Shown: positions 24,161-26,689 of the stretch, piece after piece
Layout of the letters: each line of letters opens with the position of its first letter
Position numbering within the stretch: the first letter of the stretch is position 1
Assembly: GCF_902713615.1 (NCBI RefSeq)
Contig: NC_052149.1
Coordinates: 125,801,256 to 125,865,255, forward strand
Direction: 5' to 3'
Origin: Scyliorhinus canicula
Taxonomy: Eukaryota
DNA: 64,000 bases
Notes under the pieces: generated by a model
Told to the model about the DNA's origin: nothing
Database searches by the model: none
What the model saw: only the letters and a program-made list of their open reading frames with translations
Position numbers and translations under genes: made by a program

Positions 24161-26689
24161 TGTAATGAGGTCAGGAGCTGAGTGACCCTGGCACAACCCA
24201 AACTGGGCGTCCGTGAGCAGGTTATTGTGAAGTAAGTACCACTTGATAGCACTGTTGATGACCACTTCCATCAATTGACTGATGATTGAGAGTAGACTGA
24301 TGGGGAGGTAATTGTCCTATTTCTTGTGGGCTGGATATGCCTGGGCAAGTTTCCACATTGCTGTACTGGAACAGCTTGGCTGGGGGTGCGGCAAGTTCTT
24401 GAGCGCAAGTCGTCAGTACTATTGCTGGAATATTTACAGGGCACACAGCCTGTGCAGTATCCAGGGCCTTCAGCCATTTCTTGATATCACGTGGAGTGAA
24501 TCGAATTGGGTGAAGATTGATATCTGTGATGCTGCAGACCTCTGGAGGAGACCGAGACGGATCATCCACTTGGCACTTCTGGCTGAACATTATTGCGAAT
24601 GTTTGAGCCTTGTTTTTTGCACAGATGTGCTGAGTTCCCACATCATTACGGGTGGAGATATTTTGGAACCTCCTCCTCCAGCGGGATGTTTAATTATCCA
24701 CCACCATTAACAACTGGATGTGGCAGGACGGTAGAGCTTAAATATGATCCATTGGTTGTGGGATCGCTTAGCTCTGTCTGTCACTTGCTGCGTGTGCTGT
24801 TTGGTAGCTTCCCCAGGTTGACACCCCATTTTTCGGTCTGCCTGGTGCTGCTCCTTGTGTCCTCCTGCACTCTTCATTGAACCAGGGTTGACCCCCTGGG
24901 TTGGTGATAATGGTAGAGTGAGGAATATGTTGGGCCTTGAGGTAACAGACTGTGGTTGAATACAATTCTGTTGCTGCTGATGGCCCACAGCATCTCACGG
25001 GTGCCCAATCTTGAGTTGCTTGATCCCTTTGAAGTCTATCCCATTTTGCATGGCAGTAGTGCCACACATGATGCAGGGTTCCTCAATGTGAAGATGGGAC
25101 TTTATCCCTGCGTGTGGTGGTCACTCCTACCAATACTGTCATGGACAGATGCATCTGTAGCAGGCAGGTTGGTGAGGATGAGGTCAAGTATGTTTGTCCC
25201 TCTTGTTGGTTCCCTCACCACCTGCTGCAGTCCCAGTCTAGCAGCTATGTCCTTTATGACTCTGGCCAGCTCGGTCTGTGGCAGTACTACTGAGCCACTC
25301 TTGGTGATGGACATTGAACGTCCCAGAAAACAATTGCCCCATTTCCTCAGTGCTACTTCCAATTAGTGTTCAACATGGTGGAGTTCTGATTCATAAACTG
25401 CAGTCGATGGTAACCAGCAGGAGGTTTCCTTGTCCATGTTTGACCTGGTACCATGAAGCTACATGGAGTCTGGATTCAATGTTGAGGATTCCCAGGGCAA
25501 TTCCCGACAGTATACCATTGTGTCACCACCACCGGCAGGACAGACCCAGGGATGGTGATGGTGGTGTCTGGGACATTATCTGTAAGGTATGATTCTGTGG
25601 GTGTGACTATGTCAGGCTGTTGCTGACTAGTCTGTGGGACAGCTCTCCCAATTCTAACACAAGCCCCCAGATATCAGGAAGGAGGACTTTGCAGGGTCGA
25701 CAGGGCTGGGTTTGCCGTTGTTGTTCTGGGGTCTATGTCGATGTCGGGTGGTCTGTTCGGTTTCATTCCTTTTAGAATTTTCAGCAATTTGATACAACTG
25801 AGTGGCTATTTCAGAGTCAACCACATTGCTGTGGGTCTGGAGTCACATGTCGGCCAGACCAGGTATGGACGGCAGATTCCCTGCCCTAAAGGACATTAGT
25901 GAACCAGATGGGTACGTGCGACAATCGACAATCGTTTCATAGTCAACATTACTGAGACGAGCTTTTAATTCCAGATTTATTCATTGAATTTAAATTCCAC
26001 CAGCTGCCATGGTGGGATTTGAACCTGTGACCAGAGCATTAGCCTGGGCCTCTGGATTACTAGTCCAGTGACATTACCACTACACCACGGCCTCCCCCAC
26101 ATTGTGCTGTGAGGCTCCATGGAACTGTATCCCAGCATGAAGTGTCCCTCAGGAGGGGAGAGGGAATGTTCGGAGCCCTGAGCTCCATTTCCCAGCCCAG
26201 GCATTTTGTCTTCCAATGAATGAATGAGATGCCAATTTGGAGCCAGGTTAGGGACAGTCTCGTGCTGTGGACCCAGGTCTACAAGAGGCAATTGGAGATA
26301 TCCCTGAAAGGGAAAGATTTGCTGGGTTATGGGGATAGAGAGGGGGAGTGGGACTAATTGGGTAAGTCACAGCATGATGGGCAGAATGGCCTCCTTCTGT
26401 GCTTGAAGATTCGAGGTAGTGGACATGGTTCACAGTTTTCTCCCGTGTCAGTAACAAACATCCAGCTGCTCTGAGCCCCTTCTTTCACTTCCTCTGTTGG
26501 TTACGTTTCAATATTCCGATCTGACAGTTTTGCTGTTATTTTTTACACTGGGGGTTTCTGCTGTGGTCTGAATCTCTAACAATAACTGTCCAATCAGTGA
26601 CAAGAACAGCAGCTCAGAGCAGTCAGGACTGAGGAGCCAGGCTCACTGGGAAACACATTGGGAAGATCAAAGCCATCGTCATCAGCTTC

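Follow-up and report, generated by a model that had tools for sequence, protein, structure and literature searches.

A tRNA-derived SINE head at the 5' end of a shark Zenon LINE

Introduction

LINEs are taken as Pol II elements, or as co-transcribed ones, and SINEs as non-coding Pol III elements. SacSINE1 and LmeSINE1 are Deu-SINEs that resemble the SINE described here in having a tRNA head, a central body, and a LINE-like tail, and in being shark-wide and old (Luchetti et al. 2017, PMC5499810). SINEs related to SacSINE1 are reported in chimaera and coelacanth (PMC5499810). The partner of SacSINE1 is given as L2-2_CM or as CR1-4_DR-like from a tail match only (PMC5499810, PMC3747384), whereas the partner LINE found here shares the whole 5' part of the SINE as well. 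In Lepidoptera, Zenon is accompanied by the internally deleted Persaeus, which, as here, is short and non-autonomous and joins the 5' end of a single-ORF LINE to its 3' end, but is described without a tRNA part or Pol III promoter (PMC6740152). The bipartite RTE/Vingi SINEs likewise combine the two ends of such a LINE (Kojima 2018, PMC5786205); in these, the tRNA head reportedly sits on the SINE and not, as here, on the autonomous LINE (PMC5786205). B2, Dip, and Ves, which are mammalian T+ SINEs, share a tRNA head, AATAAA, a T-run terminator, and an A tail with the shark element, whereas they are short, non-coding, and reported in mammals only, and polyadenylation in the shark is putative (PMC8466645). 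In pseudoknot I of the dicistrovirus IGR IRES, an anticodon-like loop pairs with an in-frame codon ahead of an AUG-less frame, as is predicted here (PMC3517527). The predicted pairing here spans only 3-4 bp and does not covary among copies; the likeness to the IGR IRES is one of resemblance, not membership.

Zenon has been described in elasmobranchs, coelacanth, and hagfish as a LINE with an A tail and no ORF1 (Stuart et al. 2026, PMC13343379). The published consensuses CarCar_Zenon-1, HypSab_Zenon-1, RhiTyp_Zenon-1, ScyCan_Zenon-1, and SquAca_Zenon-1 are 3.24-3.31 kb long, and Zenon frames longer than in the S. canicula genome are listed for a ray or dogfish (PMC13343379). The words 'tRNA', 'polymerase III', and 'Deu' do not occur in the main text of that paper, 'SINE' occurs in a reference only, and 'tRNA' does not occur in its supplement. 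The head, the SINE relation, the T-run depletion, and the start-site problem reported here are not described in those texts (PMC13343379). Among openly available papers, screened mostly from listings, none was seen that describes a tRNA-headed or Pol III-transcribed Zenon or other LINE. The family is thus a known one, while those papers yielded nothing on its tRNA head or on what the head implies.

Results

Anatomy of the window copy

The analysed window is a 64,000-nt stretch of the Scyliorhinus canicula genome, and positions below refer to it; model positions refer to the 3.29-kb family model. The initial annotation placed a LINE with a tRNA-derived head at 25560..26097. The head-to-APE part of that interval is real, but the element is not a short stub. 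It is a dead, decayed full-length copy of the shark Zenon LINE, and its native 5' end is a tRNA-derived SINE head. The features of this copy and of the SINE copy at the window edge are as follows.

26097 to about 13372, minus strand: whole element, broken up by a 640-nt deletion and by two insertions that came later
26005..26097, minus strand: tRNA-derived head (ARAGORN tRNA call at 26005-26091; weak Rfam tRNA-clan match; 5' boundary shared in 13/16 dispersed copies)
26077..26087, minus strand: A box TGGTGTAGTGG, by sequence (model 11-21)
26015..26025, minus strand: B box GGTTCAAATCC, by sequence (model 75-85)
25796..26004, minus strand: body common to LINE and SINE (model 97-316)
25691..25795, minus strand: LINE-only leader with in-frame GCT (25785-25783), A-rich spacer, out-of-frame ATG (25766-25764), and basic N-terminal coding stretch
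24161..25690, minus strand: degraded APE endonuclease followed by the start of the RT region, both within the single ORF (model 426-2072)
23260..24160, no strand assigned: later insertion of ~900 bp splitting the Zenon copy, with solo-LTR-like ends and a 72% relative at 58055-58363
22954..23259, minus strand: two further ORF pieces joined across the 640-nt deletion (model 2070-2124 and 2763-3011)
13653..22954, no strand assigned: later 9.3-kb insertion with two 95%-alike terminal repeats and a gypsy-type gag-like frame
13372..13645, minus strand: 3' end of the same Zenon copy (model 3007-3281 at 13645-13387), with the ORF end and stop at 13440-13438
13429-13424, minus strand: AATAAA within a hairpin of the Zenon copy 3' end, by sequence
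13380-13376, minus strand: terminal TTTTT, by sequence, followed by an A-run at 13375-13372
1..258, plus strand: SINE copy, 5'-truncated within the head (matches model 128-275 and 3217-3292); B box just upstream of the window, A box lost

The first base of the element is 26097, with the opening GGGGAGG, and the tRNA-like fold with its A and B boxes sits at the exact 5' end, as in a SINE2 head. Rfam gives the head a weak tRNA-Sec match with a long variable arm (24 bits, E 0.094, under the gathering threshold); the anticodon arm and long arm are presumably serine tRNA-like. Of 34 copies that carry the head, 15 have a B box that passes a strict pattern, and most of the remaining copies are one change off. 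The body is likely the Deu-type central domain of SacSINE1. The window copy has lost 21 nt of it, and with them the left arm of an anticodon-like hairpin (model 295-309) together with most of its loop. APE motif I (KVLL.NIWGL) lies at 25690-25661, which is 325 nt past the B box, and no SINE tail or A-run separates the two in the window copy, in agreement with the initial annotation. The stretch from 26097 to 24161 is 81% identical to model 1-2072, and the first 2 kb carry 18 indels, 14 of them frameshifting. RT pieces of sister copies match Pfam RVT_1.

Several other elements lie in the window. The 9.3-kb element, whose gag-like frame holds a zinc knuckle, is younger than the Zenon copy because it is inserted into it. 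Another broken Zenon copy (262-1726, model 1852-3039) lies directly 3' of the SINE at 1-258, and a separate Zenon 3' fragment lies at 2576-2830. Copies of a second tRNA-headed SINE, likely HE1, occur at 29957-30280, 49313-49402, and 59680-59769, two of them called tRNA-Phe by ARAGORN. An L1/Tx1-like element at 28440-33400, with an ORF1-like coiled-coil frame (28783-29439) and a broken APE-RT, sits inside a CR1 copy. The region 23000-27600 has a dozen or more duplicates, 90-98% identical and with common flanks, within 2 Mb (C4:125.6-127.4 Mb), forming a segmentally duplicated array.

Recurrence of the junction and the family model

The fusion of an A/B-box head to an endonuclease ORF recurs at independent loci. 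A 601-nt head-body-APE query against the 4.22-Gb genome gave 50 matches, from 40 scored among 10,634 candidates. Sixteen of these matches, 77-81% identical, are dispersed over 10 contigs. Thirteen of them begin within 3 nt of one common 5' base, with unrelated upstream flanks. The near-identical matches at C4:125.6-127.4 Mb share their flanks as segmental duplicates; they were not treated as independent and were excluded from independent counts.

To avoid selecting for the head, 100 copies were chosen by RT similarity alone, namely the best 60 non-local copies of 150 matches and the best 40 non-self copies of 150 listed. Outward extension from the first 60 RT-picked loci produced a 3.29-kb model that ends in the tRNA head on one side and in an A/T tail on the other. 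The model contains the head, the body, and one open APE-RT frame of 975 codons (APE motifs, FADD), with no ORF1 and no internal TTTT. A single alignment spans the APE start in 22 of the 100 RT-picked copies, of which 17 reach model position 300 or lower and 5 break at 347-457; in 12 of the 100, the alignment runs from the tRNA part past model 500 without a break. Comparison of 22 flanks upstream of the 5' breaks returned 10 cross-matches, none of which abuts the break in both partners, and thus no other 5' part or ORF1 was seen. The absence of ORF1 stated in the initial annotation therefore holds, and longer ORF1-bearing copies were not seen among those picked by RT.

Exact matches to a 30-mer of the LINE-type junction number 173 and those to one of the SINE-type junction 337, while the reversed controls gave 0. 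One 3.29-kb unit (head, body, single APE-RT frame, and tail) has been copied many times, and it is accompanied by a SINE that joins its first 316 nt to its last 75 nt. A chance SINE insertion beside a 5'-truncated LINE, spread by local duplication, could be proposed from the closest matches, which are segmental duplicates within 2 Mb. This explanation has next to no probability and is already refuted by recurrence of the junction at dispersed loci, in RT-picked copies, in the 173 exact 30-mers, and in the consensuses of five species. The head-body-APE junction is confirmed as family-wide.

No intact copy was found among the 150 RT matches (longest frame 363 aa) or the 150 listed matches (longest 711 aa). 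Similarity to the model is 81.5-93.7% among copies, with a median of 89.8%, and the Zenon family looks extinct in the S. canicula genome. No clear target-site duplication of at least 6 bp was seen in seven copies with both ends.

Identity of the family

By sequence comparison, the family is identified as the already published elasmobranch Zenon (PMC13343379). All five published elasmobranch Zenon-1 consensuses open with the same head and body when their first 400 nt are compared by eye, and a 22-nt window motif is present in three of the published Zenon consensuses (PMC13343379). The coelacanth and hagfish consensuses do not start with the head, as judged from their first 400 nt (PMC13343379). 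The clade name rests on this 5' 400-nt match, since the RT tree of 116 segments holds no labelled references. As expected of Zenon in the CR1 group, there is a single APE-RT ORF without ORF1, and the 51 3' ends show an A-rich tail rather than a microsatellite, with T3+A3+ in 31 of them.

The closest named proteins come from whale shark and sharpnose sevengill shark (66-75%). Outside sharks, the nearest relatives are single-frame proteins of 940-1,200 aa with 35-40% identity. Several of them lie on contigs of 3.3-4.3 kb, and the best start with Met and a short basic stretch ahead of APE motif I. A word-indexed protein search returned 7 matches only, all distant. Among 80 metagenome loci, 23-45% identical and many without 5' flank, which makes this a weak negative, there were 0 tRNA calls and 0 head or body matches.

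The partner SINE

The SINE consists of the first 316 nt and the last 75 nt of the LINE model, including the last ORF codons, and is about 390 nt long. In 25 SINE copies picked by the junction motif, the 5' match stops at model 316 in 25/25; the 3' match starts at 3219 in 19 copies and at 3229-3235 in 2, and was not called in 4. Ten of the 25 extend into the first 10 nt. The short partner is non-coding and non-autonomous, as a tRNA-derived SINE should be, whereas the long element codes for APE-RT. The partner SINE is probably SacSINE1, a Deu-domain SINE.

The initial annotation proposed an autonomous SINE-headed element and a SINE derived from it by deletion, with both LINE ends shared. The long coding unit, the SINE, and the shared ends are all present. 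The direction of the change does not follow, and the head may stem from an older SINE. An origin of the SINE by deletion is no more likely than capture by Zenon of the 5' part of an older SINE, because related SINEs are reported in chimaera and coelacanth and because the coelacanth and hagfish Zenon consensuses lack the head at their start. Capture and deletion may also have occurred in turn.

T-runs, the 3' end, and the polymerase

The shortest sequences that terminate Pol III in T+ SINEs are T4 and TVTTT (PMC8466645). The model has 0 T4 runs in 3,275 nt, compared with 11 A4, 11 C4, and 9 G4. TTT is found 5 times where 26.1 are expected and four-of-five-T words once where 12.5 are expected, and there is one TVTTT (TGTTT) at model 2392. 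The TTT observed/expected ratio of 0.19 is below that of all 63 metagenome LINE segments of at least 1.2 kb (minimum 0.48). Pooled copies hold 0.36 T4 per kb in Zenon versus 3.7-6.4 in four CR1-like sets of the same genome. Two L2-like families of this genome, both with 19% T and no tRNA head, served as controls. The young family has 5-8 T4 per 3.55 kb in 5 copies, the model of the older one has 6 T4 in 4.0 kb, and TTT is at expectation in both. Phe makes up 1.95% of the Zenon protein versus 2.2-5.6% in 42 near-full-length relatives, and 1.5%, under that of Zenon, in the short relative P0025.

Zero T4 is weak evidence for Pol III when taken alone. Its probability is 0.012 in base shuffles, 0.11 in synonymous-codon shuffles, and 0.19 in a dinucleotide model. 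Over 2.9 kb, the ORF of the older L2, a family lacking a tRNA head, is likewise T4-free, with TTT 9 against 18 expected, TTT/TTC of 7/28, and T4 in the UTRs only; thus, C-rich LINE coding can give the same pattern.

At the 3' end, at least T4 is found within 23 nt, beside the A-run, in 29 of 51 copies versus 9% of flank windows, and the other 22 have no T4. AATAAA is kept about 45 nt upstream in 33 of 51, and some copies have an A-rich tail alone. T-runs beside A tails can lengthen with age, which counts against the terminal T-run as a signal. The layout of a Pol III unit, with no internal T4 and a T-run at the 3' end, is therefore present in the model, but the absence of internal T4 is shared with the headless L2 ORF. 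Oligo-dT reads from three RNA runs fall on both strands of one family copy without a start pile-up at the head, as is expected of dead copies inside host transcripts.

It is possible, although rather unlikely, that the head is a fixed 5' passenger. In that case, the 5' part of a SINE would have been captured once by a template switch, the masters would have been transcribed by Pol II from a cryptic leader promoter or by host read-through, the T-poverty would be a codon or composition bias, and AATAAA would be an ordinary poly(A) signal. The T4-free headless ORF, the codon- and dinucleotide-keeping shuffles, and RNA reads resembling passive read-through on both strands are consistent with a passenger head, as is the A tail described for all Zenon (PMC13343379). 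However, the 5' boundary falls uniformly on the first base of the tRNA part, consistent with a start that the A and B boxes determine, the depletion of TTT and four-of-five-T words exceeds that of every control, and the sole T4 is terminal. Because the family avoids T-runs that stop Pol III except at its very end, it is likely a rare protein-coding Pol III element, and transcription of the family by Pol III is inferred with moderate confidence.

In the young L2-like family (L241-L252, e.g. L247:4232-7804), copies are 97-99% alike; their open frames span 864-1,105 codons, and the leader is GC-rich and repetitive. L247 has no ATG until codon 659. This family is probably recently active and without an evident start codon. 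The older, headless L2-like subfamily with the 4.0-kb model comprises L253-L260 and L317-L346.

The translation start

From the upstream TAG (model 300) as far as APE motif I, the model lacks any ATG in frame. An ATG at model 349 is conserved but mostly out of frame, with a spacing of 89 nt in 9/30 copies and 88 in 7/30; it is in frame in 5/30. A second ATG lies in frame and in good context two codons ahead of the TAG (ATG-GCC-NAG-CAA), and many AUGs lie upstream of it. A hand count of 100 listed copies of the 173 exact matches gave TAG in 51, CAG in 28, GAG in 16, and AAG in 5. An ordinary AUG start is thus opened in this genome in 49 of the 100 listed LINE copies. In LINE and SINE copies alike, the variable loop base at model 300 occurs in all four states, with 29 neighbours exact; the window copy has lost this base. 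The GAG state is associated with a head variant (Fisher P 0.0004), and the remaining states are interspersed; no TAG, CAG, or GAG clades were seen on a nearly star-like tree of 50 old copies.

These data bear on a Pol III transcript whose translation starts at the AUG just before TAG/CAG/GAG, through sense-codon masters or leaky UAG read-through, rather than from a tRNA-mimic. The in-frame ATG with its good context and the GAG-head variant link, which implies that sense-codon masters existed, speak for such a start. Nevertheless, the same four states occur in the SINE, which codes for nothing, and AUGs are numerous upstream. In addition, all five published Zenon-1 heads read TAG, and the AUG keeps the frame in only three of the five (compared by eye; PMC13343379). 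An AUG start is accordingly considered improbable.

The TAG sits in the 7-nt loop (CTAGCAA) of the anticodon-like hairpin at model 295-309. The AGC of the loop can pair with the in-frame GCT at 327-329, 18 nt downstream, and this GCT is missing from the SINE. The predicted loop-GCT pairing is only 3-4 bp, and no covariation of the hairpin pairs was found among copies. The hairpin has a local fold z of -2.4, and the fold of the whole leader, with z 0.11, does not surpass that of shuffles. By eye, each of the five published Zenon-1 heads has GCTA after the hairpin (PMC13343379). The spacer from GCT to AATGAA is 18, 18, 18, 15, and 17 nt, and the frame is kept in four of the five by the same comparison (PMC13343379). 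A non-AUG start set by the anticodon-like hairpin, in the manner of the dicistrovirus IGR IRES tRNA-mimic, would be a weakly supported model.

Two other candidates were rejected. The site for a -1 frameshift from the out-of-frame ATG (C-GGA-AAC with a downstream hairpin) is exact in 10/59 copies and absent from SquAca_Zenon-1. Stop read-through as a general start loses the frame in 2 of the 5 species with published consensuses.

Discussion

The favoured explanation, held at slightly better than even chance, is that the window element is a decayed Zenon with a native SINE head that was transcribed by Pol III from end to end, that is, from the A and B boxes to the 3' T-run. Pol III would start at the first G and cross 3.27 kb, the sense strand of which would have been purged of T4 and near-T4 runs. 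It would stop at the terminal T-run, where AATAAA about 45 nt upstream may allow an A tail to be added, as in mammalian T+ SINEs. The uncapped RNA would then be translated by internal entry, and the weakly supported proposal for this step is a start that is most likely non-AUG, at which the hairpin loop CTAGCAA pairs with the in-frame GCT. The protein would bind the 3' hairpin and insert the RNA by target-primed reverse transcription, and the SINE would use the promoter and tail of the LINE.

A bolder reading, which is unlikely, is that elasmobranch Zenon is an autonomous SINE, with a 3.3-kb coding Pol III transcript that is polyadenylated past the T-run and has a cap- and AUG-free start from a tRNA-mimic in the body. 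If this were true, ribosome binding would be the role of the conserved central body as a module. Its retention in the non-coding SINE would then also be accounted for, as docking to the ribosome would serve to capture the RT.

If the favoured explanation of a Pol III-transcribed Zenon is true, an abundant vertebrate LINE would carry a SINE promoter, 3.3 kb without Pol III terminators, and no fixed start codon, and the split between LINEs and SINEs would be blurred. It would also provide a natural protein-coding Pol III transcript. The 450-nt leader makes both the role of conserved SINE central domains and the translation of uncapped retrotransposon RNA testable. Even if Pol III transcription is wrong, the annotation of shark repeats should count the head as a part of Zenon and not as a separate SINE insertion.
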